Assembly: GCA_031800475.1 (NCBI GenBank)
Contig: DAPKRQ010000263.1
Location: forward strand, 14,547-78,546
DNA from: Myxococcales bacterium LLY-WYZ-16_1
GTDB taxonomy: Bacteria > Myxococcota > Kuafuiibacteriia > Kuafuiibacteriales > Kuafuiibacteriaceae
Reading direction: 5' to 3'
Length of the DNA stretch: 64,000 nt
How positions within the stretch are numbered: the first letter of the stretch is position 1; the number at the start of each line of letters is the position of its first letter. Positions 9,264 to 57,500 of this stretch are shown piece by piece. The notes beneath the pieces were generated by a model that saw only the letters and a program-made list of their open reading frames with translations, ran no database searches and was not told the DNA's origin. A program made the translations under genes and the position numbers.

Positions 9264-9339
9264 CGTGACAACTTTCGAGGCGGAACGTCGAAGCGGCCCC
9301 CGATCGCCTCGCTCCCGGCCAGGCCGCGCAACGCGCCGA

Positions 9340-10743
<1,404 letters not shown>

Positions 10744-13390: not shown

Positions 13391-13660
13391 TCACGCGCCG
13401 CGGGTCGGATCCGACCGCATGGCGTCGATCGCCCGCTGGACCGAGCGCTTTTCCAGGGCTTCGAACAACGCGACCTTGACGCGCACCGCCGTGTCCCGAC
13501 GGACCAGATTTCGCTTCAGGCCCATCAGTTGCTGGGCCAGACCCTGCATCCGCTCTTTCGTCGACCCGCGGATCGAAGGCTCGCCCCGGTCGGCCGAGGA
13601 AAGACCCGATGAGCGCTGAAGGGAGCCGGGTCGAAGCTTCCCGTCGTTCGCAGCCTGCAT
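13391..13660 (-). CDS. Small hypothetical protein (up to 89 aa; may start at an internal Met)
   Basis: ORF only. Weak. Confidence 0.2.
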   Translation of the reverse strand: MQAANDGKLRPGSLQRSSGLSSADRGEPSIRGSTKERMQGLAQQLMGLKRNLVRRDTAVRVKVALFEALEKRSVQRAIDAMRSDPTRGA

Positions 13661-13798
13661 GGTACCCCGAGCCTATACCCGCCGGGGCCGGCCGGGCCAT
13701 CGGATGATCGGCGGGGTCCTTTTTTCGGCCGCCGGGACCGGGCCCCGACTCAGGGGAAGATGCGGGGACGCGGGCGCGGTAGAGGGTTCGAGCACGCC

Positions 13799-31554: not shown

Positions 31555-31635
31555 CACCGGCCCGCAGCGGACGAGGATCCGAGACATGCCGGCGGCGGTC
31601 TGCTAGCTAGATGCCCGACGCGGCCAGCCGCCCGA

Positions 31636-34600
31636 TTGTCCATGGAATCGAACGGTTCATTTTCGCCTCTTCAGTCCCTGACGGGTCGGAGCGTCCTGCT
31701 CCTCGGCACCACCGGATTCTTGGGGAAGGTGGTGCTGGCCATGCTCCTCGAACGGTTTTCGGTCCGGCGGCTGCACTGCATCGTCCGGTCTACCCGAAGC
31801 CAGAGCGCAGCAGACCGATTCCGGGCCGAGGTGCTCGGCTCGGACATGATGAAGCCGCTGCGCGCCCGCTTCGCGGACAGCTTCGACGCATGGGTGGAGG
31901 AACAGGTCGAGGTCCACGACGGCGGCCTGCGCGAAAACCTCGGGTTGGCACCAGAGGTGGTGGAGCGGCTTCGGGGCGAGCTGGACCTGGTGATCAACTC
32001 GGCGGGCCTGGTGAACTTCAACCCAGCCCTGGATCAGGCCCTCGAGAGCAACACCCTGGGCGCCGACGTGGTGGCCCGGTTCACACGGGCCTGCGACCGC
32101 GCAAAGCTCGTCCACATCAGCACCTGCTTCGTCGCGGGAAACCGAAGCGGCCGGATCCGAGAAGACGCCAACGTCGTCGGATGGTTTCCGCGGCAAGACG
32201 AAATGCCCGGGGCGACCCTCGATTGGCAGCGCGAGGTCGGCGACCTGCAGCGACTCATCCAGCAGGTCCGCGCGCGCACCGACGACGCGGCGCTCGAGGC
32301 CCACTTTCGTCAGGAGGCGCTGGACCGGCTGAAGCGTGAAAGCCGGGAAGCCTCGGAACGAACCGTCCGGGCCGCCTTGACCAACCAGCGCCGTCGTTGG
32401 GTCACCGACGAGTTGATAAGACTCGGTCGGGAGCGGGCAGAGCATTGGGGCTGGCCGAACATATATACCTACTCCAAGGCCCTCGGCGAACAGGCCATCG
32501 CCTCGAACGAAGATCTCGATTGGGCCATCGTTCGGCCGGCCATCGTCGAAAGCGCGCTGAAGTATCCCTTTTCGGGGTGGAACGAGGGCATGAACACCAC
32601 CGCGCCCTTGGCCCTCATCGGCAAGCGGGGCCAGTTGGTCTATCCGGGGTCCAACGACTTGATCCTCGACGTCGTCCCCGTTGACTTCGTCGCCTCTGCC
32701 ACCATCGCCGCGGGGGCGGCGCTGCTCGACGGCGAGGGCAACCGGGTCTACCAAGTTGCGGCGGGCGACGTGAACCCGTGCAGCATGGCACGCACGGTCC
32801 ACCTCCTCGGTATCTATCGAACCCGGCAGCTCAAAGAACGGGAAGATCAAGGGGAGCTTTCCTCTTGGAAAGCTTCGGTGGCCCGCCTGGCCCGCCCCGT
32901 CCCGCGCAGCAAAGCCACCTACCAGACCTTCGGCGCCCCGGGGCTGCGGCGACTGGTCTCCGGAATCAAATCGCGCCTGGACGAACTGGAGCCCGAACGC
33001 CTCGGTTCTCTTGGCGAGTTCGTGCATCGGGCCCAAAAGGCCGCCGCCGACGTGGACGGGGAGCTGGCGAAGGTGGTCGACGCCTTCGAGCTCTTCATGC
33101 CGTTCATCTGGGAGCACCGATACGTCTTCCGCTCCGACAACACTCGCCGGCTGTTTCGCGACATGGCACAGGCAGACCGGGGTTTGCTTCCCTTCGACAC
33201 CGAGGGCATCGATTGGCGTCACTATTGGCTGGACGTCCATCTTCCGGGATTGGAAACCTGGGTATTTCCGAAACTCGAAACGCAGGGTCCAAAGCGGATC
33301 GCGATCCATCGAGACTATCGAGACCTCGCCGAGCTGTTCGATTCCCGCACGCGGGACAATGCGCGGCGAACGGCCTATCGGATCCTTCGAAAAGACGACG
33401 TTGCCGACGGCTTCACCTACAAGGACCTTCGGCGCGCAGCCACAGCCGTGCAAGCGTTTTTGCAACACCAGGGCATCGGGCGCAAAGATCGCATCGCCAT
33501 CGCGTCGGAAGGGCGCCCCGAGTGGGGGATGTGCTTTTTCGGGATTCTGTTGTCTGGAGGCACCGCAGTCCCGCTGGACGTCGAGCTTTCCGATGGCGAG
33601 CTATCGAACATCGTTCGAAGCAGCGGGTGCAAAGGGGTGATCGCCAGCGACGAACAGCGAACGAAGCTGTCGTCGGTCGGGGTTCCGGTTTGGTCCTTTT
33701 CCGACGTATTCGAGACCGCCCACACCCGAACCGAGACGCAACTCGCAACCATGCGCCGTAGGCCCGAGGACGTGGCGTCGATCATCTTCACATCCGGGAC
33801 CACCGGTCGCCCGAAGGGTGTGATGCTGACGGACCGGAACTTCACCGCGTTGACCGCTCGGCTGTCGGCGCTTTTCGAGCTACAGCGCTCGGACGCTCTG
33901 TTGTCGGTTTTGCCTCCTCACCACACCTTCGAGTTTTCGGCCGGTCTATTGATGCCATTGGCCGCTGGGGCCAGCGTGACCTATCTGGAAGAGCGCTCCC
34001 CCGAGCTGATTCAGCGGGCCTTCCGCGAGATTCCCGTTACTGGGCTCATCGGGGTGCCAGCGGTCTGGGAGAGCCTGCATCGACGAATCGTCGAACGGGT
34101 CGAGCAGCATCCGCTTCTGGTTCGTTGGACCGTAAAGACTCTTTCTCTTTTGAACAGAAAACTTCGAGAGAAAACCGGCATGAACTTCGGCCGACTGGCC
34201 TTTCGAAAGGTGCACGCCGGCTTTGGCGGGCGACTCCGCTACCTGGTGAGTGGGGGCGCCGCGCTGTCCACCCGGGTGTTCAACGATCTCCGTGGCTATG
34301 GATTCTCGATCTACGAAGGCTACGGGCTCACCGAGGCCGCTCCGGTGCTCACGGTCGACTGGCCCCGGCAGCGCTTTCCGGCGGGCAGCGTCGGATGGCC
34401 CTTGCCCGGAATCGACGTACGTCTTCACGCCGCCGACGACAACGGAATCGGAGAGGTGGTCGCTCGGGGTCCGACGATCATGCTCGGGTACCTGGACGAT
34501 CCGGATTCCACCCGAGGAGTTTTGAAGGACGGATGGCTGCATACCGGCGATCTGGGGCGGTTCGACGACGACGGGCGCCTGTATATCGTTGGTCGCAATA

Positions 34601-36009
34601 AAGATGTCATCATCGACGCCAACGGCAAGAATGTCTACCCAGACGAGGTCGAAGAGCTCTACGAGGGCCACCCGCTGATCAAGGAGCTTTCGGTGGCCGG
34701 CATTCCGGACGAGACCGGCCAGCATGAGCGGGTGGCGGCCATGGTTCATCCCGATTTCGAGCGAGGCAAAGACGAGGATGATCTGGACCCGAACGAAGTC
34801 GAAGAGCGGATCCGCGCCCATTTTCGCGAAGTCGGAAGCCGACTCCCGTTCGCGCGGCGGGTCAAGGTTCTGCACTTTGCTCGGTCCGAGCTGCCACGCA
34901 CTTCCGCCCGCAAAATCCGGCGCAGCTGGGTGCGGCAGGAACTCGTTCGACTGGAAGGCGCCGGGCGAAAGGTCGAAGCCGGCAACGGGACCACCAGTCA
35001 AACCGCAGAGCGTGTCCGCCGGTTGGTTGCGAACGTCGCCCAGCGTCCGCTGCGGGACTTGAGTCCGGCCACGTCGCTTTCGAACCAGCTCGGGTTCGAT
35101 TCGCTTCTTCAGATGGAGCTTTTGAATGCCCTGGAGCGGGAGTTTCCAGACCGGGACCTGGCGCCGGAGGAGCTGACTGCCGTCGACACCCTGTCGGAGC
35201 TCGTGCAGTTGATGGAGCGCAGCCCCGACCATCGCTCCCGTCCCGTCACCGACGTCGCCCACGAGGAAGAGGCCCCTCCGGTCAAGATCCCAGGACCGGT
35301 GGCCCGGATGGGCAAGCGCATGCTCGGTCAGGCTCAACATCTGGCCTACGACCGGTGGCTGCACTGCGAAGTTCAGGGCCGTGGCAACATTCCCGCGAAT
35401 ACCAACTTCATCGTGGCGTCGAACCACGCGAGCCATCTGGACATGGGCCTCGTAAAGTATGCCCTCGGGCCTTTCGGACGGGGGCTGCGGTCCCTGGCCG
35501 CTCGAGACTACTTCTTTGATGATCCGGTCCGCCGGACCTACTTCGAAAACTTCACCAACCTGCTTCCGATGGAGCGGCACGGCTCTCTGCGCAGGTCGCT
35601 CGAGTTGGCCGTACGTAGCTTGCGGCAGGGCGAGTCGCTGTTGATCTTTCCCGAGGGCACCCGGGCCCGGGACGGGGTGATGACTGCCTTCAAGCCGGCA
35701 GTGGGCTACCTGTGCCTCCACGCCAAGGTCGACGTCTTGCCGATCTACTTGCGAGGCACCCACCAGGCGCTGCCGGTCGGGGAATGGCGTCTGGACCCGG
35801 CGCTCAAGATCGAGGCTCACATCGGTCCTCCGATTCGGGTCGACGCCATGATGGAAGCCACTCGAAAGATGTCCCGCTCTCGCGCCTACCGCCATGTGGC
35901 CCAGCAGGTGGAGGCTGCGGTCCGACGGCTGGGACGCGTGGAAGACGTGGCGACATCGGACGACGACCATCCATCGTGGGTGCTCGAGCGACGGGAGCGG
36001 TCCTCGTGA
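31636..36009 (+). CDS. Four-domain lipid-biosynthesis enzyme: fatty acyl-CoA reductase (NAD_binding_4) - long-chain acyl-CoA ligase (AMP-binding) - ACP - lysophospholipid acyltransferase (AGPAT); ElbD-like (myxobacterial ether-lipid biosynthesis)
   Basis: FAR domain: GTTGFLGK and YTYSK motifs. AMP-binding domain: TSGTTGRPKG, YGLTEAAP, GWLHTGDLGRFDDDGRLYIVGRNKD. ACP: LGFDSL. AGPAT: NHASHLD (HX4D) and FPEGTR. 1457 aa. Confidence 0.85.
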   Translation: MSMESNGSFSPLQSLTGRSVLLLGTTGFLGKVVLAMLLERFSVRRLHCIVRSTRSQSAADRFRAEVLGSDMMKPLRARFADSFDAWVEEQVEVHDGGLRENLGLAPEVVERLRGELDLVINSAGLVNFNPALDQALESNTLGADVVARFTRACDRAKLVHISTCFVAGNRSGRIREDANVVGWFPRQDEMPGATLDWQREVGDLQRLIQQVRARTDDAALEAHFRQEALDRLKRESREASERTVRAALTNQRRRWVTDELIRLGRERAEHWGWPNIYTYSKALGEQAIASNEDLDWAIVRPAIVESALKYPFSGWNEGMNTTAPLALIGKRGQLVYPGSNDLILDVVPVDFVASATIAAGAALLDGEGNRVYQVAAGDVNPCSMARTVHLLGIYRTRQLKEREDQGELSSWKASVARLARPVPRSKATYQTFGAPGLRRLVSGIKSRLDELEPERLGSLGEFVHRAQKAAADVDGELAKVVDAFELFMPFIWEHRYVFRSDNTRRLFRDMAQADRGLLPFDTEGIDWRHYWLDVHLPGLETWVFPKLETQGPKRIAIHRDYRDLAELFDSRTRDNARRTAYRILRKDDVADGFTYKDLRRAATAVQAFLQHQGIGRKDRIAIASEGRPEWGMCFFGILLSGGTAVPLDVELSDGELSNIVRSSGCKGVIASDEQRTKLSSVGVPVWSFSDVFETAHTRTETQLATMRRRPEDVASIIFTSGTTGRPKGVMLTDRNFTALTARLSALFELQRSDALLSVLPPHHTFEFSAGLLMPLAAGASVTYLEERSPELIQRAFREIPVTGLIGVPAVWESLHRRIVERVEQHPLLVRWTVKTLSLLNRKLREKTGMNFGRLAFRKVHAGFGGRLRYLVSGGAALSTRVFNDLRGYGFSIYEGYGLTEAAPVLTVDWPRQRFPAGSVGWPLPGIDVRLHAADDNGIGEVVARGPTIMLGYLDDPDSTRGVLKDGWLHTGDLGRFDDDGRLYIVGRNKDVIIDANGKNVYPDEVEELYEGHPLIKELSVAGIPDETGQHERVAAMVHPDFERGKDEDDLDPNEVEERIRAHFREVGSRLPFARRVKVLHFARSELPRTSARKIRRSWVRQELVRLEGAGRKVEAGNGTTSQTAERVRRLVANVAQRPLRDLSPATSLSNQLGFDSLLQMELLNALEREFPDRDLAPEELTAVDTLSELVQLMERSPDHRSRPVTDVAHEEEAPPVKIPGPVARMGKRMLGQAQHLAYDRWLHCEVQGRGNIPANTNFIVASNHASHLDMGLVKYALGPFGRGLRSLAARDYFFDDPVRRTYFENFTNLLPMERHGSLRRSLELAVRSLRQGESLLIFPEGTRARDGVMTAFKPAVGYLCLHAKVDVLPIYLRGTHQALPVGEWRLDPALKIEAHIGPPIRVDAMMEATRKMSRSRAYRHVAQQVEAAVRRLGRVEDVATSDDDHPSWVLERRERSS

Positions 36010-42244: not shown

Positions 42245-42334
42245 CCTCAGCCGCCACGACCCTCAGCCGCCACACTCCTCAGCCGCCACGACCTTCCGCC
42301 GCCACAACCGTTCGCCACAACCCTCAGCGGCCAC
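42245..42334. repeat. 16-bp tandem direct repeat, about 6 copies (plus strand CCTCAGCCGCCAC + 3-nt spacer; gene strand GTGGCGGCTGAGG)
   Basis: Seen directly. Three perfect 13-mers are at 42245, 42261 and 42277. Three degenerate copies follow. The last copy overlaps the stop codon of the metallophosphoesterase gene. The array fills most of the region upstream of ldh. Confidence 0.7.
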
Positions 42335-44420
42335 GGGCGGTCAGTTCGACGCGGTCGATCACCTCACCCCGATCGTTCACCACCTCCAGGTCCACCCGAT
42401 CTCCGTCGACCTGCACCTCACAGTAGTGGATCTGGGGCCGGTACACCCGAATGGCCGCCCGCCAGGGCACGGACTCGTCCAGGGCGTAGTAGGGAGCCCC
42501 TGCCCCCCCCGTCACCAACTGCCAAACCGGCACGTCGAAAGCCGGCCGGACCGAGGCGTCGACCAGGGTCCGGGTGTAGCTGTGCTCGTCGCCAAAGAAG
42601 GCGGCCAAGACCCGGTGCTTCACCAGCACCGACCAGAATGCATCGCGGCGGGCCAAAACCTCGGGAATGCGCCCGTCCCAGTACATGGCGTCCTTCACGT
42701 GGCCCGCCGAGGGAAAAGCGGGCTCGTGGGTGAACACGAACAGGTGGGTGGCGCCGCGCTGCCGGGCCGCAGTCAGATCGGCGTCGAGCCAAGCCAGCTG
42801 AGCGTCGGTGAGATACCCCTCCCGCACCCCTCGACCGAAGTGGGGATGGTCGGTGCGTTCGATGTGAGACCGAAAAAAGTAGTTGGTGTTGAGCACCGCC
42901 AGGTGCACCGGGCCCCGATCGAAGCTGTAGACCGATTCGCGGTAGCTCGGCGCCCCTGGCTTCGCCTCGGGTCCATTGTGTGGATTGACGAAGACCTCGG
43001 CGAACAGGCTTTCGCTGTTCACGGGCCCGGGCAAGTCGACCATGAACCCATGGGAATCTGCGGCCATCAACAGCTCGTGGTTGCCCATGGCTTCGTAGAA
43101 CGGAATGCGGCTGGCGAAGGGCTGCACCGAGCGGACGAAACCGGCCAACTCGTGCCGGTAGGCACCCGGCTCGGTGGTGTAGCCGTTGATCAAATCCCCG
43201 ACGAACACCACGAAGTCGTTGTCCCGGGCCCAGATCCACTCGCTCAGATCCCGCAGGGCCTCCCGGTTTGATCCCCGAAAATTCCGGTCCGGCGCCCCGA
43301 GCCCCGCCCGGCTGTCACTCATGACCGCGAAGCGAAACCGGTCGCTCGACGGAGGCCAGGTTCGAAACGCGCCTTCGGTGGCCACCGCCACCTCGCCCCG
43401 CCCGTCCCGCACGAGCACCAGGTACCGGTAGGCGGTGTCGGGCTCCAGGCCCCGCAACGGGACTTCGTGTCGAAGCCCCCCGGTACGGGTGTCGAAGCGA
43501 CGGACCGAACCGCCATCAGACCAAACCACGACCCGGGCCATGGTGGGCACATCGGTCTCGAACGAGACCATTGCCCGGTCGGTCATCACCCGGTCCACCA
43601 ACGGCCCCAGCCGAAACGAAGGCAGCTGAACGAACCTGGATCCCGGCCGGCAGGGCACCGGCTCGCAGCGGTAGTACACGTCCAGGTCGTCGAACCGCTC
43701 GGCTCCGACCCGCGGGTCCAAGACCCGCACCCGTACCGCCAAGATCCCGCGGCCCCCGGTCCGGGTCTTCTCCACGTCGTACTTGTCCCGGAGCAACCGG
43801 GTCAGCGGGATCCGAGCCCGCCACTTCCGGTGCGGGGTGGAGGGCGACTGCGAAGGGGTAGGCTCGATCGGAACCGCCTTTCGCAGCGTGCGCTGGGGCA
43901 AGCCGAACCCCTGCAGCCGCACACCGTAGTCGACCCGCCCTCCGGCGAGCGGTGCGTCGGTGGCGAAAGACAGCTCCACCACCCCGTCTTCCCGCAGCCT
44001 GGCCCCGGGAGCCTGCGTAAAAGCCAGGTTGTGCACCTGCACCGGCCGTCCGGGCGGCAAAGGAGGGGCGCCTGGCTCCACCCCGTCCAGGTATGATTCC
44101 ATTCGATAGACATCTCCGGAGAACGGCCGCACCAGGTCGGGTCCCGAGGAGTCGAACAGGGGCGCTGGCAGGGCCCCTTTTTCGTTCTCAGCGGCAAAGG
44201 CCTCCCGCTCCTGCCCGAGGAAGTCCCAGTCCCCGGCGGGAAGCTTTGCGGTCCACGAAGGCCCGACCGCAGCTGCGCTCCGCCCGGCCCGGGCCGCCGC
44301 GGTGTTCGTGCCTTCACCGGAATCCGCCGGCCCGCTCCCGGCCCCCCCATCGGTCGCGCAGGCCCCGGCGAACCACAGGACGGCCGCCGCCAGCGAAGCG
44401 CGAAGGCGGTGTCCCGTGCG
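42324..44420 (-). CDS. Metallophosphoesterase lipoprotein (purple-acid-phosphatase-like: FN3-like N-domain plus calcineurin-like phosphoesterase)
   Basis: Motifs FAVMSDSR, VVFVGDLINGY and GNHE(L) of calcineurin-like phosphoesterases, preceded by a PAP-type N-domain. Probable lipoprotein signal LWFAGAC near residue 235 of the long ORF. The true start is uncertain; the ORF is open to 45122. Confidence 0.7.
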   Translation of the reverse strand, partial: RTGHRLRASLAAAVLWFAGACATDGGAGSGPADSGEGTNTAAARAGRSAAAVGPSWTAKLPAGDWDFLGQEREAFAAENEKGALPAPLFDSSGPDLVRPFSGDVYRMESYLDGVEPGAPPLPPGRPVQVHNLAFTQAPGARLREDGVVELSFATDAPLAGGRVDYGVRLQGFGLPQRTLRKAVPIEPTPSQSPSTPHRKWRARIPLTRLLRDKYDVEKTRTGGRGILAVRVRVLDPRVGAERFDDLDVYYRCEPVPCRPGSRFVQLPSFRLGPLVDRVMTDRAMVSFETDVPTMARVVVWSDGGSVRRFDTRTGGLRHEVPLRGLEPDTAYRYLVLVRDGRGEVAVATEGAFRTWPPSSDRFRFAVMSDSRAGLGAPDRNFRGSNREALRDLSEWIWARDNDFVVFVGDLINGYTTEPGAYRHELAGFVRSVQPFASRIPFYEAMGNHELLMAADSHGFMVDLPGPVNSESLFAEVFVNPHNGPEAKPGAPSYRESVYSFDRGPVHLAVLNTNYFFRSHIERTDHPHFGRGVREGYLTDAQLAWLDADLTAARQRGATHLFVFTHEPAFPSAGHVKDAMYWDGRIPEVLARRDAFWSVLVKHRVLAAFFGDEHSYTRTLVDASVRPAFDVPVWQLVTGGAGAPYYALDESVPWRAAIRVYRPQIHYCEVQVDGDRVDLEVVNDRGEVIDRVELTARGR

Positions 44421-44429
44421 GCCTTCCAA

Positions 44430-44525
44430 GCCGATCGGGCCGAGCGCGCGGGCCTTCGCACCACCGGTCGAGCCGACCGGACCGAGCGCGCCGCCAGCCG
44501 AGCCGACCGGGCCGAGCGCGCTGGC
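44430..44525. repeat. About 30-bp tandem repeat x2.5-3 (GAGCCGACCGGRCCGAGCGCGC core)
   Basis: Seen directly. If translated (minus strand) it encodes ALGPVGSAGG / ALGPVGSTGG / ALGPIGLEG. It lies at or just upstream of the probable start of the metallophosphoesterase gene. Confidence 0.55.
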
Positions 44526-44611
44526 CGTCGCGCCGCCGACGAAACCGAACGCGTGGCGTCCGCCACCTCGGCTCCGGTCGAGTGGGGGGCGTTTTGAGCC
44601 GCCGCGCCCCC

Positions 44612-45172
44612 TCACGAAGCGCGCCGGCCGCAGAAGAAGCGCTGCAGCGCCTGCCGATCCACCCAAGGGCTGGTCCCCGGCGGACGGCGATCGAAGCGAA
44701 GAAGCTCGCGAAGCGGCATGGAGCCCCGTTCGGAGCCCGACGGAGCTCGCCAGAGCGGCGGCGGCGCCCGGTATCGGCCATGCTCGTCGAGCATGTGGCT
44801 TCTGTCGCTCCAAAAGCGTTCCACGAACACCGCCGAGGGAATCCATCGAAACGCTGGCTGGAATGGATGGGGCAGATTCGAGGGAAAGCTTCGCGCCAAG
44901 TACGACTCGAGGCGGATGCCAAAGAACAGCCGCGTGTCCAGGTCGTGCACCGTCCATGCCCGTTCCATTTCTTTCGGCCGAAGGCCGACCACGTGATAGT
45001 CCCAAACCAGCGGGCTCCCCGGACTTGCGGCTCGCTGCTCCGTCATGCACACGGCGCGGGCCGGGTTCGAAATGAACAGAACGACCCCGTTCGGCCGAGG
45101 CCTTCGTTCGAACATCTTCCATACGTTCTCTTCGCAGTAGAATGGTTGGTGGGAGTGAAGCGGGCCCGTCAT
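44612..45172 (-). CDS. Protein N-terminal glutamine amidohydrolase (NTAQ1 / WDYHV family) homologue
   Basis: FYCEENVWKM, VLFISNP, LVWDYHVVGL, HDLDTRLFFG, FWSDRSHMLD, YRAPPPLW. These align block-for-block with my recollection of animal NTAQ1 (CYCEENIWKL, AVFISNE, VIWDYHVVLL, YDLDTVLPFP, FASDRSHMKD, WREPPPPYP). The ATG overlaps the upstream stop (ATGA). Confidence 0.8.
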   Translation of the reverse strand: MTGPLHSHQPFYCEENVWKMFERRPRPNGVVLFISNPARAVCMTEQRAASPGSPLVWDYHVVGLRPKEMERAWTVHDLDTRLFFGIRLESYLARSFPSNLPHPFQPAFRWIPSAVFVERFWSDRSHMLDEHGRYRAPPPLWRAPSGSERGSMPLRELLRFDRRPPGTSPWVDRQALQRFFCGRRAS

Positions 45173-45771
45173 CGGGCTTCGAAGCGCAGGGTTTCGTCGG
45201 AGACCACCACGATGTCTCCCGAGGCGATCTTGTCCTTTTCGATGCGCTGCCCGTTCTTCCACAACCCGTTGGCCGAGCCCAGGTCTTCGATGAAGAGTTC
45301 TCCGTCGTCCATGGTCAGGGTCGCGTGCTGCCGGCTCACCTTGGCCGACGGCAAAATGATGTCGCAGTTGCGACTTCGCCCGATCACCATGTGGTCCTTG
45401 TCGATGGACAGGCGCTCCCCACTGTCGAGCCAGACGTACCAACCCCGACCCGACGCCGCCGGCTTGGAGGCGGGCACCGGCGCCGGTCGGACTTCGACCT
45501 GGGGCACGGGGCCGGCGTCCGCCTCCGGCATCGCCGACTCCTCGGTCGGGCGCGCCGCGCCGACGGCCACCGGAGGCACGACCGGCCACGCCGCCAACCC
45601 CTGGCCACAGGCCGCCTGAAATCCGGCCTCGTCCTCGGACAGATCCACCTGACGGCCGCAGACGTGACAGGCCACCGCCCGCGGGAGCTCGCTCACCGAC
45701 AGCTCGAGCCAATTTTGGGGGCACTGCTCGGCGTGGGTGCAGTTGGTGATCCAACCGAGGCTCTCCCGCAT
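45169..45771 (-). CDS. FHA-domain protein with N-terminal zinc-ribbon-like CxxxxC...CxxC region
   Basis: C-terminal FHA core (MVIGRSRNCDIILPSAKVSRQHATL ... GSANGLWKNGQRI). Its stop overlaps the NTAQ1-like start. Confidence 0.7.
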   Translation of the reverse strand: MRESLGWITNCTHAEQCPQNWLELSVSELPRAVACHVCGRQVDLSEDEAGFQAACGQGLAAWPVVPPVAVGAARPTEESAMPEADAGPVPQVEVRPAPVPASKPAASGRGWYVWLDSGERLSIDKDHMVIGRSRNCDIILPSAKVSRQHATLTMDDGELFIEDLGSANGLWKNGQRIEKDKIASGDIVVVSDETLRFEAR

Positions 45772-45839: not shown

Positions 45840-46520
45840 TCAAACCGCGTAGGGCGTGGGATCGGAAACGCCGGCTTCGGCGAAACCCTTGCGGCGGAGC
45901 CGGCAGGCGTCACACCGACCGCACGCCCGTCGTTCTCGGGGATCGTAGCAGGATACGGTCGGGGACAGATCGACCCCAAGGCGGGCAGCTTCCCGGACGA
46001 TTTCGGCCTTGGTCCACTGCATCAGGGGGGCGTGCACCCGGAACGGTTGGCCTTCGACCCCCGCTTTGGTCGCCACCTGGGCCAGGCGCTCGAAGGCCTC
46101 GACGAAGGCGGGGCGGCAGTCGGGGTAGCCCGAGTAGTCCAGGGCGTTGGCGCCGAAGAACAAATCTTGGGCACCGACGGTCTCGGCCAATCCCAGGGCC
46201 ACGGCCAGGAACACGGTGTTGCGAGCCGGGACATAGGTGACCGGAATCGCGGTCCCGCCCTCTGGCATGGCCTGGCCCTCCGGCACTTCGATGGCCCGAT
46301 CCGTCAAGGCCGAGCCGCCCACGGCCGAAAGATCCAGCCGAACGATCCGGTGGTCGACGACCCCCTGGGCGGCCGCCACCTCCCGGGCCGCGTCCAGTTC
46401 GACCCGATGGCGCTGGCCGTAGTCGAAAGACAAGCAGCTGACCGAAAACCCCCGCTCCTGGGCAATGCCCAGGGTGGTGGCCGAATCCAGGCCTCCCGAC
46501 AGCAAAACCACGGCCCGCAT
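45840..46520 (-). CDS. queC: 7-cyano-7-deazaguanine synthase
   Basis: PP-loop [13 protein letters not shown] and C-terminal zinc site [16 protein letters not shown]. Confidence 0.9.
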
Positions 46521-46698
46521 GCCGCCATTTTGACACGGCACTCCCCAACTGCCGCGGTCAAAAGCCGCGGCCAGACGCCTTCGACCTCCCCGAAGCCCCC
46601 GCAGAGCTCGACCGCGGAGCGCAGAACGGGAGCCGCGAAGCCCATCGGGCTGGACTCCCTTTCGGTTCCCGGTGTACGTCGCCGTGGTTTCGCCCCGG

Positions 46699-46779
46699 GC
46701 GAGGGTGGCGGAATTGGTAGACGCACTGGATTTAGGTTCCAGCGGGCTTCCCGTGCGGGTTCGAGTCCCGCCTCTCGCA
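46699..46779 (+). tRNA. tRNA-Leu (anticodon TAG), class II with long variable arm
   Basis: Cloverleaf folded by hand. Acceptor stem GCGAGGG / CTCTCGC with a G-U pair and discriminator A. D-arm GCGG...ACGC. Anticodon stem CTGGA/TCCAG with loop TTTAGGT. 12-nt variable arm. T-arm GCGGG TTCGAGT CCCGC. No encoded CCA. Confidence 0.75.
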
Positions 46780-46795
46780 GCGAGTCCCCATACCC

Positions 46796-48112
46796 ATGAA
46801 GATCGAGGTTGAAACCCTGTCCCCTGCCGAACGGAAGGTCCGCGTCGAGGTCCCCTGGGAGACCGTGCGGGCCGAGCTGGACGAAGCCTACCGGGCCCTG
46901 AGCAAGCGGGCCAAGGTACGCGGCTTTCGCCCCGGCAAAGTGCCCCGAAAGGTCCTCGAGCAGATGTACCGGCAGACCGTCGAAGGCGAGGTGCTGCAGC
47001 GGGTCATCGACGACGGCTTCCGGCAGGCGGTGAACCAAAACGACCTCCACCCCATCGACCGGCCTCGGCTCGACGAGGTCCCCGCGCTTCGGGCGGATGA
47101 GCCCCTGAAGTTCGAGGCCCGGGTCGAAGTCAAACCCGAGGTCGAGGCCGAAAACGTGGAGGGCCTGGAGGTCAAAAAGGAGGTCCGGCCCATCGGCGAC
47201 GCCGAAGTGGAAGCGGAGCTCATGAACCTGCGGGAAAAGGCCGTGGTCATCGAGCCGATCACGGATCGACAGGTGGCCCAGGAGGGCGATCTGGCGGTCA
47301 TCGACTTCTTCGGCTACGTCGACGGCGAAACCTTCAAAGGCGGCAAGGGCATCAGCTACACCGTCCACCTGGGCGAAAAGCAGATGATCCCCGGATTCGA
47401 AGAGCAGATCGTCGGCATGTCGATCGGTGACGAGAAGACGTTCGAACTGCCCTTTCCCGAGGGGACCGGACCGGAAGAGGTGCAGGGGAAGGACGTCGAG
47501 TGGAAGGTCGACCTCAAGGAACTCAAGCAGAAGATCTACCCGGACCTGGACGACGAATTCGCCAAGGACCTGGGCGAGTTCGACACGCTGGAGGAGCTGA
47601 AGACCCAGATCCGCGAAAACCTCGCCACCCGCGAAGACGCGAAGCAGCTGCGCTCCCTCAAAGAGTCCGCTCTGAACGCACTGGTCGACGCCAACCCGAT
47701 CACGGTGCCATCGGCCATGGTGGATCGGCAGGTCGACCTGATGCTCCAGGACGCTACCGCATCCCTCCAAAAGAACGCCGACCCCGCGCTGCGCGAAGCA
47801 CTGGAACGGGTCAAGACCGAGATCCGTCCCCAGGCCGAGCGTCGGGTGGCAGGCATGCTTCTGTTGGAAGCCGTGGCCCGGAAAGCGGAGCTGAAGGTGT
47901 CGGAAGAGGAGCTCGAAGGTCGGCTGGGGGAGCTGGCCCGGGAGCATCGGATGCCGGTCCGGCAAGTGCGGCAGCAGCTGCGCTCCAACGACCAGCTGGA
48001 AGGCTTGGAGTACGGCATGCTCCAGGACAAAGCCCTGGATTGGGTGCTGGAGCGGTCCCAGGTTGTGGAGGTCGAGCCAGCCCCCGAGTCCGAGACTCCC
48101 TCGGAAGGTTGA
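46796..48112 (+). CDS. tig: Trigger factor
   Basis: N-terminus [22 protein letters not shown] ... [14 protein letters not shown], and a PPIase-type middle domain. Confidence 0.95.
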
Positions 48113-48186
48113 GCCGACATGCTGCGTCGACCGCCCGTTGGTGAGGGTTCTCTCGGGGTTCCCGCCATCGGTTCGATGGGTCGACG

Positions 48187-48876
48187 ATGGCTGCCAACAC
48201 TGGACCTGGGGCGGAAGAGTGTCCACCATGGTCCAGGCGGAGCGATTCCGCGAGGACAGTCTTGAGTTACCTGGTCCCCACCGTCATCGAACAAACCCAC
48301 CGCGGCGAGCGGGCCTACGACATCTGGTCCCGCCTCATGAAGGATCGGATCGTGTTTCTCGGCACCGAGATCCACGACGACCTGGCCAACGTCATCGTCG
48401 CCCAGCTCCTGTTCCTGGAGTCCGAGGACCCGGAAAAGGACGTGAATCTCTACATCAACAGTCCCGGTGGCTCCGTGTCGGCCGGAATGGCCATCTACGA
48501 CACCATGCAGTACGTCCGGTGCCCGATCACCACGATCTGCATCGGTCAGGCCGCATCCATGGCTGCCGTGATACTGGCCGCTGGGACGAAAGGGCGCCGC
48601 AAGGGCCTGCCGCACTCCCGGATCATGATCCACCAACCGGCGGGCGGAGCCCGAGGTCAGGCGTCGGACATCGAAATCGCCGCCAAAGAGGTCCTGCGCA
48701 GTCGCGACATGCTCAACCGGGTCCTCTCCGAGCACACGGGGAAGCCCCTCGACCAGATCGCCCAGGATTCGGACCGGGACTACTACATGACCGCCGAAGA
48801 AGCCCGAGACTACGGGATCATGGACGACGTGGTGGTCAGCAAGAAGGCCGACGAAGGCTCGTCCGAGCCCGGCTGA
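48187..48876 (+). CDS. clpP: ATP-dependent Clp protease proteolytic subunit
   Basis: [19 protein letters not shown], catalytic [11 protein letters not shown]. An alternative TTG start at 48261 would give the canonical [11 protein letters not shown]-terminus. Confidence 0.9.
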
Positions 48877-48928
48877 GTCTGGCAGGCGTTGATCGACCGG
48901 AGGATTTCAGGCGACATGGGAGAGTCCG

Positions 48929-50200
48929 ATGGCTGACCGGGGCAAGCGAGACGAATACGGGGGCAACCTGACCTGCTCGTTCTGCGGCAAATCGCAGAAA
49001 GAGGTGAAAAAGCTGATCGCCGGCCCGGGCGTGTACATCTGCGACGAATGCATCGGTCTGTGCAACGACATCATTGCGGAGGAGCAAGACCACGAGCTCA
49101 AGACCGATGGCAGCTTCAAGCTCCCGAAACCCGCCGAAATCAAGCGCGTGCTCGACGAGTACGTGATCGGGCAAGAGCGGGCCAAAAAGTCCCTCGCGGT
49201 GGCGGTTCACAACCACTACAAGCGCGTCTTCGAAAAAGAAAAGGACGAGGACGGCGACGACGTCGAGCTGCAAAAGTCCAACATTCTACTGATCGGACCG
49301 TCCGGCTCGGGAAAGACGCTGCTCGCCCAGACCTTGGCGCGGATCCTCAACGTGCCCTTCACCATCGCGGACGCCACCACCCTGACCGAGGCGGGCTACG
49401 TCGGCGAGGACGTGGAGAACATTTTGGTCCACCTGCTCCAGGACGCCGAGGGCGATATCGAACGGGCGAGTCGGGGCATCGTCTACATCGACGAGATCGA
49501 CAAGCTCGCCCGAAAGAGCGAGTCCCCATCGATCACCCGGGACGTTTCGGGCGAAGGGGTGCAACAGGCGCTCCTCAAGATCCTGGAAGGGACCATGGCA
49601 AACCTTCCGCCCAAGGGTGGAAGAAAGCATCCGCAGCAAGACTTCGTGCAGATGGACACCACGAACATCCTATTCATCTGCGGCGGAGCGTTCTGCGGCC
49701 TCGAAAACGTGGTCGAGCATCGGATCGGCAAGAAGACCATGGGCTTCGGGGCGGAGATCCGGGGCAAGTCTTCCCGGCGGATCGGCGAGCTGCTCCAAGA
49801 GGTTCAGCCAGGCGATCTGCTCAAGTTCGGCATGATCCCGGAGTTCACCGGCCGTCTTCCGGTGATCACCCACCTGAACGAGTTGGACGAGCAGGCGCTG
49901 ATGGACATTCTCACCAAGCCGAAGAATGCCCTGGTCAAGCAGTATCAGCGTCTTCTGGAGCTCGATAACGTCAAGATCAGTTTCGCCGAGAACGCCCTGG
50001 AGGCCGTGGCCCAAAGGGCGATCAAAAAGGGTACCGGAGCGAGAGGGCTCCGGGCCATTCTCGAAAAGTGCATGCTCGAGGTCATGTACGAGATCCCGGC
50101 CAAGAAAGATGTGGTCGAGGTCGTGGTCACGCCCGAAGCCATCGACCTCGCCGAGCCGCCCAAGTTGATCCGCAAGTCGGTGGAACGCACCGGAACTTGA
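48929..50200 (+). CDS. clpX: ATP-dependent Clp protease ATP-binding subunit ClpX
   Basis: Zinc-finger CSFCGK...CDEC, Walker [17 protein letters not shown]. Confidence 0.95.
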
Positions 50201-53963: not shown

Positions 53964-54515
53964 TCAACCTGGAACCGTCGCCAACACCTCTACCGGAACC
54001 TCCTCGACAAAGGGCGATTCCTCCACGTCGCAGTTCGCATCGAAGGGCACGACCTCGCCTCGGATGATGACGGGTCGAGAAAAGTCGCTGTCGACGAATA
54101 CCCGATTGTTGGGGTCGACGACGAAGCGGCCCGCTTCACACAAGCGCACACGCTGGACCACCCCGCCGACCCGGACCCCGTCGGATGGCCGGAGCACCTC
54201 GAACACGATGCCCCAGGAACCAGCACGGGGGGCGTCGAACTCCATGCCCACGTAAACGTGTTGCCCCGCGCGCTGCACGGGGCTCCCCTTGACGAGCTGC
54301 AGGCTCTGACCGGGTGCCAAAGACTGGGTCCCGTCTCCTTCGCGAGTGAGCAGACGGATCCCTGCCTCTCCATTGAACGGAGTTACAGGTCGACACGTGC
54401 GACCGTCTCCGCAGCCGATGGCTGGGTCGAGTCCATTTTGGTCCGAGCTGCTGTCCGGCGCTTCACCGCCGCACGCGAACAACAGAGTCAACCATCCGAG
54501 CCGAGCCCATTTCAC
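53964..54515 (-). CDS. Hypothetical lipoprotein
   Basis: Signal peptide plus lipobox LLFACG. 183 aa. Confidence 0.45.
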   Translation of the reverse strand: MKWARLGWLTLLFACGGEAPDSSSDQNGLDPAIGCGDGRTCRPVTPFNGEAGIRLLTREGDGTQSLAPGQSLQLVKGSPVQRAGQHVYVGMEFDAPRAGSWGIVFEVLRPSDGVRVGGVVQRVRLCEAGRFVVDPNNRVFVDSDFSRPVIIRGEVVPFDANCDVEESPFVEEVPVEVLATVPG

Positions 54516-54594
54516 GGCGGCGGAGCCTACTCGCAGCCTTTCGGGCGTTCAAGAGCCCGCCTTTTCTCCCCCACCGATCTGTGCGACAAGCCAG

Positions 54595-57500
54595 CCGATG
54601 TCGCACCGCCCGGATCGCGTTCGGAAGCTCTTTGCGGCGGGGCTGACGGTGGCGCTTCACGGATCTTTGGCGTGGGCCCAACCCGCCTCGGATCGTTTGC
54701 CAGCGGAAGCTACACTCCGGTTCGACGCAGAGGGTCCGAGACGGCTGTTGCCACGGGTTCGATTTCACCCGGTGATCGATCCCCTGCCCTCGCTGGCCAT
54801 CACTGGGCTGACCCAGGACGCGAAGGGCTTTCTGTGGGTGGCCACGCAGAATGGCTTGGGGCGGTGGGACGGCCGACAGATGACGGTCTTTCGTGCCCGC
54901 GAGGGCAAGAAGAAGGGAGGCCTGCCCTCCTCGTACGCCAGCGCGATCACCGCCGACGGCGCGGGTGACGTGTGGGTGGGAACCTATGACCGAGGCGTGG
55001 CCCGCTTCTCCTACCGGGACGGAAGCTGGGAGACATGGGACACCGAAGAAAGATTGTCATCCCCGTCCGTCACAGCGCTGCACGCCGACGGAGAAGGACA
55101 AATGTGGGTAGGACACGCCACCGGTACGGTGGACCGGATCTCGGTCGACAGCGGCTCGGTCACGGCAGTCGTCGAGCCCGGTTACATCGATGCCGAGATC
55201 ACTTCGATTCGGTCCACCCAGGACGGATCTGTCTGGCTCGCGTCAAAAGATGGCCTTCATCGTTTCCGGAACGGCGTCCTCGATTCATACCGCCACGACC
55301 CCTTCGTGGAAGGCTCGCTACCGGCCCAGGAACTGAATGATGTCCTCGTGGACGACGGCCGAGTCTGGGTGGCTACGGCGGGCCGGGGCGTCTTCGTGGC
55401 GTCCACGAGGGACATGCGTTTCGAGCGGGTCCGAGAAGGCTCGGAAAACGCCCACGCCCTCGTACTCGAGCGCGGACCCGACGGCTCGGTGTGGGTCGGG
55501 ACCCGAGTGGGTTTGGAGCAGCATCTCCCCGACGGAAGCTTTCAGCGCTATCAGCGCGATGAAAAGGATCCCGCTTCCGAATCCTTCCCCCCTTGGACCA
55601 GCGAGCTTCTGTTCGATGGTCGAGGCATCCTATGGCTCGCGGGGTTCGGACACGGCCTGCGCAAGCTGGACTTCCATGAAAGCCAGTTTGGGCCATTGCA
55701 CCTCGACCGGCTCACGTCGCCCGTCTTCGCCGAAGAGACTCCGGGCACGGTCTGGATTGGAACACCTACACGCGGCCTCTATCGGGTCGATTTTGAGGGT
55801 GACCAGGTCCGGCGGTACCCAACCTTTCGGGTGGGAGGGAGGACGAGAAGGCTTCTCGGCACGTGGATCACCGCCGTCCACCACAGCTCGCGCATCCGCC
55901 TGCCGGGCCGACGCCAGCCATCGAACCCGGCGGGCAATGTATTCATTTCGACCGAAGCCCACGGTATCCTGGGCCTCGATGCCGGCACCGGCACGGGCCG
56001 GGCCATTCCCGTGGACGTGGTCGAAGAGGGCCTCTTCGACACCCTCCGAGTCGACGACTTCGTAGAGTCCGGCGGAATGCTCTTCGCCGCCTCCTGGGGC
56101 GGAGGTCTGCTGCGTTACGTTCCCGAGCGGGGCCACTTCGAGCGGGTCCCGGTCGAGTTGCCGAGCCCTTACCTGTACGACCTGGAGGTAGCCCCGGACG
56201 GCCGATTGTGGGTGGGTATGGCCGAAGGCGGCGTGGCGTCGATCCGACCGGACCCCCTCGAGCTGACCGTGCCCGACGCGGTGAATGCGAGTCTTCCCGA
56301 TCGAAACGTCACTTCCGTGCGGGTCGAAGACGGACGACTGTGGATGGGTACCTTTGGCGGGGGATTGGTCCGGTGGGATCCCCGCTCTGGGGACCTCAAC
56401 AGCTGGGGCATGGAGGAAGGCCTGCCGAGCGACACCGTGTTTTCGGCGCTCCGGGGAGATGACGGCGCCCTGTGGGCGTCGACCCCTAGAGGACTGGTTC
56501 GAACCCGCGTCGAACCCGATGCCAGCCTGGGACCGACGCGGATTTTGGGTCTGGCGGACGGACTGCAGGGCGACGAGTTCAACCAGAGCACGCATCTCGC
56601 CGGATCCGACGGCCATCTGTACTTCGGCGGGACCCGGGGCGGACATCGCTTCAGACCCTCGGACCTCGAGTGGCCGGACCATCGGCCCCAGGTTCACGTG
56701 ATGGATTTCTCGATCTTTCAAGAGTCGGTGCCTCTCGAGGAGCCGGTGTGGACCCATCCTCCCGTCCACCTCGGTTATCGCGACTCGGTCTTTTCATTCG
56801 AATTCGTGGCGCCGTATGGAGGCAATCCGAACCGACTTACCTACGCCTATCGCCTCGCCGGACTGAGCGGTTCCTGGATCGAGAGCGACCGAACCTTCGC
56901 CACATTCACGAGCCTTCCCGGCGGCAACTACAACTTCCAGGTTCGTGCCCGGATCGACGGCGGAACCTGGTCGGAACCCACGACGATTCCGATTCGGGTG
57001 GATCGCCCCCCTTGGCTGCGATGGTGGGCCTTTGTCATCTACGGAGCCATCGGGGCTTTGGTGGCTCTCGCGTTCCTGCGACGCCAGCGCGCCAAGCTTC
57101 GAGCGATGCAGCAGGCCCACCGCCTTCAGACGGTGGAGCGCGAACTGGAGCTGACCAGTGCGGTGCAGACCGGTTTTTTGCCCACGGAAGACCGATTCGA
57201 CGACGGTCGGGTTCGGCTGCAGGGCTACTATCGACCGGCGGACCAATGCTCCGGCGACTGGTGGTACTTCGAAGACGATTCGGACCAAACCTTGTCGGTC
57301 TTGGTGGGCGACGTGACCGGGCACGGTCCCGGGCCGGCCATGGTGACAGCCGCAGCTGCCACCGCATTCCGCGTAAGCCGGTCGGGCGACCCCTTGGCTC
57401 AGCGACTGGGTGCAGTCCATTCCGAGGTCCAGTCCGTGGCCCGCGGCAAATACCACATGACGATGACAGCCGTGCAGGTTGACAAGCGGACCGGCGCGTT

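Follow-up and report, generated by a model that had tools for sequence, protein, structure and literature searches.

We analysed a stretch of 64,000 nt (the window) from Myxococcales bacterium LLY-WYZ-16_1 (assembly GCA_031800475.1, contig DAPKRQ010000263.1, positions 14,547 to 78,546 of the forward strand), which GTDB places in the lineage Bacteria; Myxococcota; Kuafuiibacteriia; Kuafuiibacteriales; Kuafuiibacteriaceae. Within the window, positions 44612-45771 correspond exactly to two coding sequences on the minus strand, one for an FHA-domain protein and one for a protein resembling the N-terminal glutamine amidase NTAQ1. The locus comprises the following features.

42324..44429, minus strand: DUF7800 plus calcineurin-like metallophosphoesterase, predicted lipoprotein (Pfam; homology to the related locus L064)
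44612..45172, minus strand: NTAQ1-family protein, N-terminal glutamine amidohydrolase homologue, 186 aa (PF09764, human NTAQ1 structure matches, AF2/Foldseek)
45169..45172, minus strand: ATGA stop/start overlap, in which the TGA of the FHA gene and the ATG of the NTAQ1-like gene share bases (sequence tcat)
45169..45771, minus strand: small two-module four-Cys/FHA protein, 200 aa (PF00498, 30-sequence alignment, AF2/Foldseek)
45840..46541, minus strand: queC, 7-cyano-7-deazaguanine synthase (PF06508, E 1.6e-74; TIGR00364, 198 bits)
46699..50200, plus strand: tRNA-Leu, tig, clpP and clpX block, divergent from the FHA-NTAQ1 pair (ORF translations and similarity to ORFs of related loci)

A preliminary description of this DNA had the ATG of the NTAQ1-like gene overlapping the FHA stop codon, with queC upstream and a metallophosphoesterase gene downstream on the same strand. 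This arrangement was confirmed in each respect: the overlap reads tcat at 45169-45172, queC ends 68 nt upstream of the FHA start, and the downstream gene gave a Metallophos Pfam match. The same two coding sequences, with the same 4-nt overlap, were called independently on two metagenome contigs. As a sequence feature, the ATGA overlap implies co-transcription of the two genes, and their translation is probably coupled at this junction.

The 186-residue protein and the NTAQ1 family

In eukaryotes, NTAQ1 initiates a branch of the N-degron pathway, and N-terminal amidases as a class are considered a layer of that system specific to eukaryotes. The proposal that the 186-aa protein is an NTAQ1 homologue had been based on a block-for-block alignment with animal NTAQ1, including a WDYHVV motif and the Cys in FYCEENVWK. 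Both motifs (FYCEENVWK and VWDYHVV) are indeed present, and the Pfam profile PF09764 (Nt_Gln_amidase) matched the protein with E 6.4e-38 and a score of 130.6 bits (cut-off 27), the alignment covering positions 1-165 of the 184 in the profile. A phmmer search against PDB sequences returned entries of human NTAQ1 only (4w79, 3c9q, 6kgj, 8jj*; E 1.5e-20). The AF2 model of the protein (pLDDT 93.6, pTM 0.90) matched the three-layer alpha-beta-alpha fold of 4W79, and all 17 significant Foldseek matches in the PDB were human NTAQ1 (TM 0.83-0.86), the next match having an E-value of 0.23. No signal peptide was found in the 186-aa protein.

The catalytic triad of human NTAQ1 consists of Cys28, His81 and Asp97 (PMC4214742), while Glu29, Asp79, Tyr80, His148 and Met149 hold the free alpha-amino group and the first backbone amide of the substrate (PMC11168063). 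The triad is intact in the protein described here (C13, H60 and D77), as are the residues that bind the substrate N-terminus (E14, D58, Y59, H126 and M127), and all of these columns were invariant in alignments of 19 and 43 sequences, across the bacterial and eukaryotic members aligned. Judged by sequence and structural model, the protein genuinely belongs to the NTAQ1 (Nt_Gln_amidase) family, and the myxobacterial copy is apparently fully functional. It shares with human and mouse NTAQ1 (EC 3.5.1.122; PDB 4W79, 3C9Q, 6KGJ, 8JJ*) the Pfam family, single-domain size (186 versus 205 aa), predicted fold, Cys-His-Asp triad and residues for recognition of the substrate alpha-amino group and backbone. 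In contrast to the human enzyme, to which its identity is only ~30%, it is encoded by a gene overlapping an FHA gene, in a bacterial host that has neither a ubiquitin system nor ATE1 arginylation.

Bacterial members of the family are barely studied, as the preliminary description had remarked. NCBIfam holds no model for the protein, its NCBI annotation is "hypothetical protein", and our literature search found no publication on bacterial NTAQ1 members. A protein annotated as hypothetical can thus be given a function-level name; the enzyme family is known, and its genomic context here is new.

The four-Cys/FHA protein

The 200-aa protein encoded directly upstream carries a C-terminal FHA domain (residues ~110-200; PF00498, E 4.3e-19, 69.1 bits, cut-off 20.7), connected by a variable Pro/Ala-rich linker to an N-terminal module (residues ~1-65) with four conserved Cys residues (C11, C17, C35, C38) and a conserved LAAxPVVP motif. 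The Gly-Arg, Ser-x-x-His and Asn residues, which we take to be the phosphothreonine contacts of FHA domains in general, are intact (G131-R132, S146, H149, N168) and invariant in 30 family members. By these residues, the FHA domain is phosphothreonine-competent.

In the 30-sequence alignment, C35 and C38 are invariant and conservation of C11 and C17 is 90% or more, with the spacing CX5C-X17-CX2C. The N-terminal module had been called a zinc ribbon; its four conserved cysteines make it a candidate, and neither a PDB sequence search nor Foldseek with the AF2 model, which has moderate confidence in this module (pLDDT 58-93), matched it to a known zinc ribbon.

The top Foldseek matches of the AF2 model were the FHA domains of OdhI, GarA and EmbR. 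In structure, the FHA domain is closest to GarA and OdhI (E ~2e-8, TM to target 0.8-0.87), actinobacterial proteins that regulate 2-oxoglutarate dehydrogenase and related enzymes. Like the protein described here, they are small and cytoplasmic with a single FHA domain as their only recognisable signalling module, and their direct control of enzymes in response to Ser/Thr kinases sets a precedent for an FHA regulator of this kind. The present protein differs from them in having a four-Cys module instead of an N-terminal ETTS-type phospho-acceptor tail, and in the unrelated partner enzyme. The NCBIfam OdhI model scored only 45 bits against a cut-off of 200 and covered the FHA part alone, which places the protein outside the full-length OdhI/GarA equivalog. 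The best PDB sequence matches were the two-module FHA proteins 8s05 and ArnA (5a8i), with E 2e-10 over the linker and FHA part. ArnA (Sulfolobus acidocaldarius, zinc-ribbon plus FHA; related to 8S05) resembles the protein described here in its overall plan, in that a Cys-rich module at the N-terminus, metal-binding in ArnA, is connected by a linker to an FHA domain at the C-terminus; however, the N-terminal modules do not align, and the partner of ArnA is a vWA protein in motility control rather than an amidase.

Based on these features, we propose a working model in which the amidase would act in the cytoplasm on Gln residues that a previous proteolytic cleavage has placed at the N-terminus, turning them into Glu with release of ammonia by the thioester route of the human enzyme. 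The two proteins would be produced at a constant ratio, and the FHA protein would link the amidase to signalling by Ser/Thr kinases. It could do so as an adaptor, recruiting the amidase to proteins that carry phosphothreonine, or as a phospho-switch of the GarA/OdhI kind that acts on the amidase. This model, in which an NTAQ1-family amidase conserved with an FHA gene acts as an N-terminal Gln amidase linked to kinase signalling, is the one towards which we lean, on balance and leaving aside any subsequent Bpt step. The conserved pair hints at phosphorylation-linked N-terminal processing in bacteria.

Conservation of the FHA-NTAQ1 pair

Co-occurrence of the two genes was surveyed in 14 FHA-family loci, i.e. 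the window, five loci found from the NTAQ1 side and eight newly sampled via FHA orthologues. NTAQ1 is present in 13 of the 14, directly downstream of the FHA gene in 12 and after an inserted gene in one (JGI 3300041965 contig); among the eight newly sampled loci, PF09764 was found downstream in seven. L083 is the sole FHA-family locus that lacks NTAQ1. The junction takes the form of a 4-nt NTGA overlap in eight loci (the window and seven further ones) and of a gap of 1-17 nt in four more. We conclude that the pairing is conserved and not due to chance, which defines a two-gene module of a four-Cys/FHA protein and an amidase. Viewed from the NTAQ1 side, an FHA gene lies within 6 kb in only 5 of 80 loci across bacteria, and the enzyme therefore does not need FHA. 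Minicystis rosea and Plesiocystis pacifica, two culturable species with NTAQ1, have no FHA partner for it.

Relatives of NTAQ1 were found in 275 or more bacterial species from several phyla, and clustering of the family at 50% identity gives 3189 clusters. Neither all-against-all clustering nor a Pfam tally revealed a universal conserved neighbour of bacterial NTAQ1; among 69 upstream ORFs, the tally counted FHA five times, alpha/beta-hydrolase four times and the Lon N-domain three times, with singletons otherwise. In other lineages, a low-molecular-weight phosphatase domain with an intact CX5R loop is fused to NTAQ1 in two clusters, a fusion of NTAQ1 with a protein methyltransferase was found, and in Lentisphaeria a gene for a Lon substrate-binding domain (Lon N-domain) overlaps NTAQ1 by 4 nt (GTGA). 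Protein kinase genes adjoin NTAQ1 in three loci (L002, L047, L079), which is weak evidence given the great number of such genes in Myxococcota and Planctomycetota. The overlaps and fusions with other protein-binding or protein-modifying partners in unrelated lineages suggest that NTAQ1 generally works with a partner.

These data bear on the earlier suggestion of a phospho-dependent or N-terminal-processing regulatory pair, which is plausible in view of the link conserved in the FHA family and of the phosphatase fusions elsewhere, the pairing itself being lineage-specific. They also bear on a simpler explanation, in which the enzyme deamidates N-terminal Gln on its own and the FHA gene is simply a conserved neighbour, kept in place by a compact inherited operon organisation rather than by partnership. 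The 75 of 80 NTAQ1 loci that are without any FHA gene agree with it, as do the persistence of FHA without NTAQ1 in L083 and the separation of the two genes on the JGI contig. All FHA-linked loci belong to one Myxococcota lineage with shared synteny, and inherited gene order therefore contributes to the count of paired loci. The syntenic block as a whole consists of clpX-clpP-tig and queC-(queD)-FHA-NTAQ1, and shared ancestry explains part of its conservation; in at least 12 of the 14 loci, window included, the pair is divergent from tig-clpP-clpX, and the Pfam domains Trigger_N/FKBP_C/Trigger_C, CLP_protease and zf-C4_ClpX were recorded on related loci. The NTAQ1s linked to FHA genes showed no residues peculiar to their group, for instance a conserved Thr. 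A neighbour-joining tree of 85 NTAQ1 sequences was star-like and gave no answer on the monophyly of the FHA-linked members or on the direction of transfer to or from eukaryotes. On the other hand, the tight junction is kept at only ~40-55% protein identity and has survived both the loss of queC (L089, L049) and the turnover of all downstream genes, and the partnerships of NTAQ1 in unrelated lineages also speak against mere proximity. We consider the neighbour-only explanation rather unlikely and retain kinase-coupled N-terminal Gln deamidation as the preferred model.

Neighbouring genes

The metallophosphoesterase gene begins 182 nt after the NTAQ1 stop, with a lipobox (FAGAC) following a TTG start at 44429. 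This TTG, just before the lipoprotein signal peptide, is the more likely start codon. A 932-aa ORF that seemingly overlaps NTAQ1 was rejected as a high-GC artefact: the protein is 57% identical to the product of the gene downstream of NTAQ1 in L064, and this homology begins only after the signal peptide. We also rejected the metallophosphoesterase as a partner protein phosphatase, given its lipoprotein signal peptide, its distance from NTAQ1 and its presence in only 2 of the 14 FHA-family loci; the Metallophos gene of L049 is not homologous. It probably lies outside the FHA-NTAQ1 functional unit. A GC-rich hairpin after NTAQ1 was discarded as a terminator, its stability not exceeding that of shuffled sequence (z 0.19), and consensus scans gave nothing above background.

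queC is present in most FHA-family loci, but L089 and L049 keep FHA-NTAQ1 without it; the gene is common in the block yet dispensable. QueC uses ammonia, and the position of its gene just upstream in most loci of the lineage could mean that the NTAQ1 fold serves a different purpose here, namely deamidation of free Gln or small peptides, provision of ammonia for QueC, or a transglutaminase-like protease or protein-glutaminase activity on internal residues. The fold does belong to the papain/transglutaminase-like superfamily, whose chemistries are varied (PMC10318531, PMC4214742). However, the invariance of all five residues that position the substrate alpha-amino group and first backbone amide (PMC11168063) speaks against this. 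In addition, queC is adjacent in only 4 of the other 80 NTAQ1 loci, all of the FHA lineage, whereas in a fifth locus outside it (L008) queC lies ~5 kb away, and no link such as a preQ1 riboswitch was seen, the search for riboswitches or other RNAs near queC having found only the tRNA-Leu. The amidase as ammonia donor for QueC was dismissed on the persistence of the pair in the two loci without queC and the absence of an adjacent queC outside the FHA lineage, and we regard a different job for the fold as very unlikely overall.

It might be suspected that the gene was recently acquired from a eukaryote and has no function, or that eukaryotic DNA contaminates the metagenome-assembled genome, since NTAQ1 is best known from eukaryotes and, within one alignment, the identities of this protein to fungal and human proteins (30-38%) are about as high as those to most bacterial members (30-41%). 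For practical purposes, both possibilities are refuted by the gene's ~67% GC, which is the genome's own composition, its overlap with a bacterial gene, its presence on two other contigs, and the breadth of a family with invariant catalytic residues in bacteria.

A candidate tertiary step in N-degron processing

If the kinase-coupled amidase that we favour feeds a downstream pathway, this would have to be Bpt/ClpS/ClpAP, as opposed to ATE1/UBR for human NTAQ1. The preliminary description had set an N-degron role aside since bacteria lack arginylation. This reasoning fails because N-terminal Glu would be a substrate of Bpt, the bacterial Leu-transferase that leucylates N-terminal Asp and Glu for ClpS/ClpAP (PMC3692480, PMC9351520); a bpt gene has been reported in a spirochaete (PMC12493166). 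The N-terminal residues recognised by Bpt thus include the product of an N-terminal Gln amidase, while the Leu/N-degron pathway (Aat, Bpt, ClpS, ClpAP), in the published accounts that we found, has primary and secondary destabilising residues only. To our knowledge, no amidase (tertiary) step has been reported for the bacterial N-degron pathway.

As a speculative last step of the model, the Glu product would be taken up by Bpt, and Gln would then count as a tertiary destabilising residue in the Leu/N-degron pathway that runs through ClpS/ClpAP. A complete three-tier pathway of this kind, in which conversion of N-terminal Gln to Glu by NTAQ1 is followed by leucylation by Bpt and degradation by ClpS-ClpAP, gated by phosphorylation through the co-translated FHA adaptor in this Myxococcota lineage, appears quite unlikely to us. 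If true, it would give bacteria their first tertiary destabilising residue and provide the first N-degron step gated by phosphorylation. Gln N-termini are not produced by the methionine aminopeptidase of bacteria; substrates would therefore need an endoproteolytic cut, and we know of no Gln substrate exposed in this way. Genes for bpt, clpS, clpA, aat or a Ser/Thr kinase were not found within the 64-kb window, and searches for ClpS and Bpt in the window and 89 fetched loci gave no matches with approximate query sequences, a negative result of little weight.

Members with an apparently intact active site are spread over at least 275 bacterial species, and here the gene is joined to a phosphothreonine reader beside clpP-clpX. 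This raises two testable questions, whether bacteria possess a tertiary N-degron step and whether kinase signalling selects proteins for N-terminal editing. ClpX, although encoded beside the locus, is not the N-degron unfoldase. The proximity of the pair to tig-clpP-clpX, together with the overlap of the amidase gene with a Lon substrate-binding-domain gene in Lentisphaeria, points weakly towards proteolysis.

A putative N-terminal glutamine amidase gene overlaps an FHA-domain gene

The preliminary description had proposed an NTAQ1 homologue, coupled to an FHA-domain partner, at 44612-45771. A check of the sequence showed that two CDSs exactly fill this interval:

44612-45172, minus strand: NTAQ1-family CDS, 186 aa, beginning MTGPLHSHQPFYCEENVWK
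45169-45771, minus strand: FHA CDS, the upstream partner, 200 aa

The plus-strand tcat at 45169-45172 reads ATGA on the coding strand, so the NTAQ1 start codon and the FHA stop codon share bases, as had been claimed. Two short metagenome contigs, with genes called independently, contain the same two CDSs with the same 4-nt overlap. This observation is solid. The overlap implies a single transcript and probably translational coupling of the FHA protein and NTAQ1.

The database entry identical to the 186-aa protein is a "hypothetical protein" of Myxococcales bacterium LLY-WYZ-16_1, and no NCBIfam model matches it. Profile searching assigned it to Pfam Nt_Gln_amidase (E 6.4e-38; 130.6 bits, cut-off 27), and human NTAQ1 was its only match among all PDB sequences (E 1.5e-20). 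C13, H60 and D77 align with C28, H81 and D97, the catalytic triad of human NTAQ1 (PMC4214742), and alignments of 19 and of 43 members, bacterial and eukaryotic, show no variation in these columns. Also invariant are E14, D58, Y59, H126 and M127, the counterparts of human Glu29, Asp79, Tyr80, His148 and Met149, which grip the free alpha-amino group and first backbone amide of the substrate (PMC11168063). When an AlphaFold2 model built from 43 sequences (pLDDT 93.6, pTM 0.90) was compared with the PDB using Foldseek, all 17 significant matches were human NTAQ1 (TM 0.83-0.86), and the next match had an E of 0.23. In every feature that can be checked in silico, sequence and model thus agree with the proposed family membership and an intact triad. 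The enzyme family is already known and the window protein is recognised by Pfam; its bacterial members are indeed barely studied, as a literature search found no paper on them and they have no curated NCBI family. To our knowledge, neither the conserved FHA-amidase module nor the other partner contexts reported here have been described.

The FHA partner carries an N-terminal four-cysteine module

A profile search placed an FHA domain (PF00498, E 4.3e-19) at the C-terminal end of the 200-aa protein. G131-R132, S146, H149 and N168, which we take from general knowledge of characterised FHA domains to be phosphothreonine-contact positions, are all invariant in 30 members of the family, and the modelled domain superposes best on OdhI, GarA and EmbR. 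The first 65 residues form a distinct conserved module, which opens with MRE(C/S)LGW, contains four cysteines (CX5C-X17-CX2C) and closes with an LAAxPVVP motif. The module is compatible with the zinc ribbon suggested earlier, but this label is unproven because no known zinc ribbon matched the module in PDB sequence or fold searches. The top PDB sequence matches, 8S05 and ArnA (5A8I), are likewise two-module proteins, but the similarity is limited to the linker and FHA part.

The FHA-NTAQ1 module is conserved but lineage-specific

Scanning 185,579 species genomes for NTAQ1 relatives with the YCEEN pattern gave a lower bound of at least 275 species, in taxa including Myxococcota, Planctomycetota, Lentisphaeria, Spirochaetota, Melainabacteria, sulfur-oxidising Gammaproteobacteria and Acidobacteriota. 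Within 6 kb of NTAQ1, an FHA gene occurs at only five of the 80 best loci (L016, L032, L047, L049, L064), directly upstream in all five, and an FHA-family HMM at E up to 1 found no others near NTAQ1 in these 80. At least 153 full-length relatives of the FHA protein were found (about 41-68% identity), and every organism-named one comes from a Myxococcota or "Deltaproteobacteria" MAG. Among eight contigs of such relatives sampled for downstream gene content, PF09764 lay directly downstream of the FHA gene in six, followed an inserted opposite-strand gene in one and was absent from one. The co-occurrence survey suggested in the preliminary description thus reveals a conserved yet lineage-specific module, since NTAQ1 is present at 13 of 14 loci of this FHA family (window included), with a tight junction at 12 of them, against the few FHA genes at NTAQ1 loci.

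Junctions between FHA and NTAQ1 genes (L handles denote related bacterial loci)
ATGA or GTGA overlap: window, L064, L016, L047, L049, L085, L086, L088
Gap of 1-17 nt: L084, L089, L032, L087

The pair is divergent from tig-clpP-clpX at no fewer than 12 of the 14 loci, including the window; on the short contig L049 a Metallophos gene takes that place. At most loci queC, sometimes followed by queD, lies between tig and the FHA gene, and the genes 3' of NTAQ1 vary (radical-SAM gene, TetR-YceI, protein kinase, AceK, phosphoesterase). The FHA gene could be a mere inherited neighbour, which we consider possible though unlikely: 75 of the 80 NTAQ1 loci have no FHA gene, one FHA-family locus (L083) has no NTAQ1, and no FHA-specific residues were found in NTAQ1. 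However, the junction outlasts both the loss of queC (at L089 and L049) and complete turnover of the downstream genes.

At L083, a short unit (GCTCTGTGCGTCGACG...) is tandemly repeated across 5577-5700, just after the FHA stop; the array might be a deletion or rearrangement scar.

Other genes are joined to bacterial NTAQ1

No universal NTAQ1 neighbour was found among the bacterial loci compared. In Lentisphaeria, the upstream gene codes for a Lon substrate-binding domain alone (PF02190, E 1.5e-31), and the NTAQ1 GTG start overlaps the stop of this gene as GTGA:

L010, 5288-5965: Lon substrate-binding-domain gene
L013, 2684-3343: Lon substrate-binding-domain gene
L015, 5315-5965: Lon substrate-binding-domain gene

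This is a second small partner gene, unrelated to FHA, that overlaps NTAQ1 in like manner. Searching 1.84 billion representative proteins with a profile yielded 3189 NTAQ1-family clusters, nearly all single-domain and 175-200 aa long. Among the few long members, two independent fusions join NTAQ1 to a low-molecular-weight phosphatase domain, in proteins P0179 and P0233, whose clusters are <50% identical to each other. P0233 lies on a clearly bacterial contig (L090, 5001-5936); because a CX5R catalytic loop (VVCSANTCRS) is in frame just upstream of its called start, the true protein is probably longer, with a complete phosphatase domain. Single members are fused to a PrmA/Methyltransf_16-type protein methyltransferase (P0277) and to UDP-glucose pyrophosphorylase. 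Genes for protein kinases lie directly beside NTAQ1 in L002, L047 and L079; given how common kinase genes are in those phyla, this is weak evidence. Several of these contexts are suggestive.

The window itself encodes a Methyltransf_16/PrmA-like protein methyltransferase (8592-9368, minus strand), 40% identical over 133 aa to the P0277 methyltransferase domain; at 35 kb from the amidase gene, it implies no linkage.

Possible roles of the amidase

Because its catalytic and N-terminus-binding residues are conserved, the 186-aa protein most likely does what NTAQ1 does: it would convert N-terminal Gln into Glu via a Cys thioester, releasing ammonia. That the protein works on another substrate, for instance to supply QueC with ammonia, appears quite improbable given the invariant N-terminus-binding residues and the FHA-NTAQ1 pairs that occur without queC. 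Contamination or a dead transfer is excluded, as the gene overlaps a bacterial one, has native GC, recurs on other contigs and has relatives widely distributed among bacteria. An NTAQ1-type amidase without a signal peptide, as here, would act in the cytoplasm, and since bacterial methionine aminopeptidase does not uncover Gln, its substrates would have to be fragments made by endoproteases.

Most simply, the FHA protein would tie the amidase to Ser/Thr-kinase signalling, plausibly either as an adaptor targeting it to phosphothreonine-marked proteins or as a GarA/OdhI-style switch acting on it. The 64-kb window yielded no Ser/Thr kinase gene. The sole Ser/Thr-phosphatase-like gene seen there encodes a large sensor with Reg_prop/Y_Y_Y repeats and a C-terminal SpoIIE (PP2C-type) domain (54310-57870, plus strand).

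An N-degron role had been dismissed on the grounds that bacteria lack arginylation. This does not follow. In Vibrio vulnificus, the ATE1 relative Bpt attaches Leu to N-terminal Asp or Glu, which thereby become secondary destabilising residues in the ClpS-ClpAP pathway (PMC3692480, PMC9351520; bioRxiv 10.1101/2021.07.26.453911), and bpt has been reported from Leptospira as well (PMC12493166). An amidase acting on N-terminal Gln would stand directly above Bpt. Adjacency to clpP-clpX and the Lentisphaeria Lon-domain partner are weakly compatible with a link to proteolysis, and no bpt, clpS or clpA was found in the 64-kb window. That the amidase feeds Bpt is doubtful; if true, it would be the most exciting reading, a phospho-gated tertiary step of a bacterial N-degron pathway.

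Further features of the window

A 21-nt direct repeat (AGCCGAYCGGRCCGAGCGCGC) occurs three times at 44429-44521, its copies 90-95% identical and spaced by 42 and 30 nt; they lie between the NTAQ1 stop and the likely phosphoesterase start, within a longer 65-nt imperfect duplication, and may be a protein-binding site array or a coding-repeat remnant. A 932-codon frame (42324-45122, minus strand), running from the phosphoesterase up through NTAQ1 in another frame, is contradicted by orthologue homology and a lipobox (FAGAC), which place the true phosphoesterase start near TTG 44429; it exemplifies how high GC inflates ORFs here. Other features are:

46699-46779, plus strand: tRNA-Leu (anticodon TAG), directly upstream of tig in the 255-nt divergent queC-tig region
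31555-36006, plus strand: single 1484-aa protein with fatty-acyl reductase (NAD_binding_4, Sterile), AMP-binding, carrier-protein and acyltransferase domains, presumably resembling the myxobacterial ether-lipid synthase ElbD
13613-21585, plus strand: bacterial alpha-2-macroglobulin (1887 codons), then a PBP1C-type transglycosylase/transpeptidase, a usual pairing
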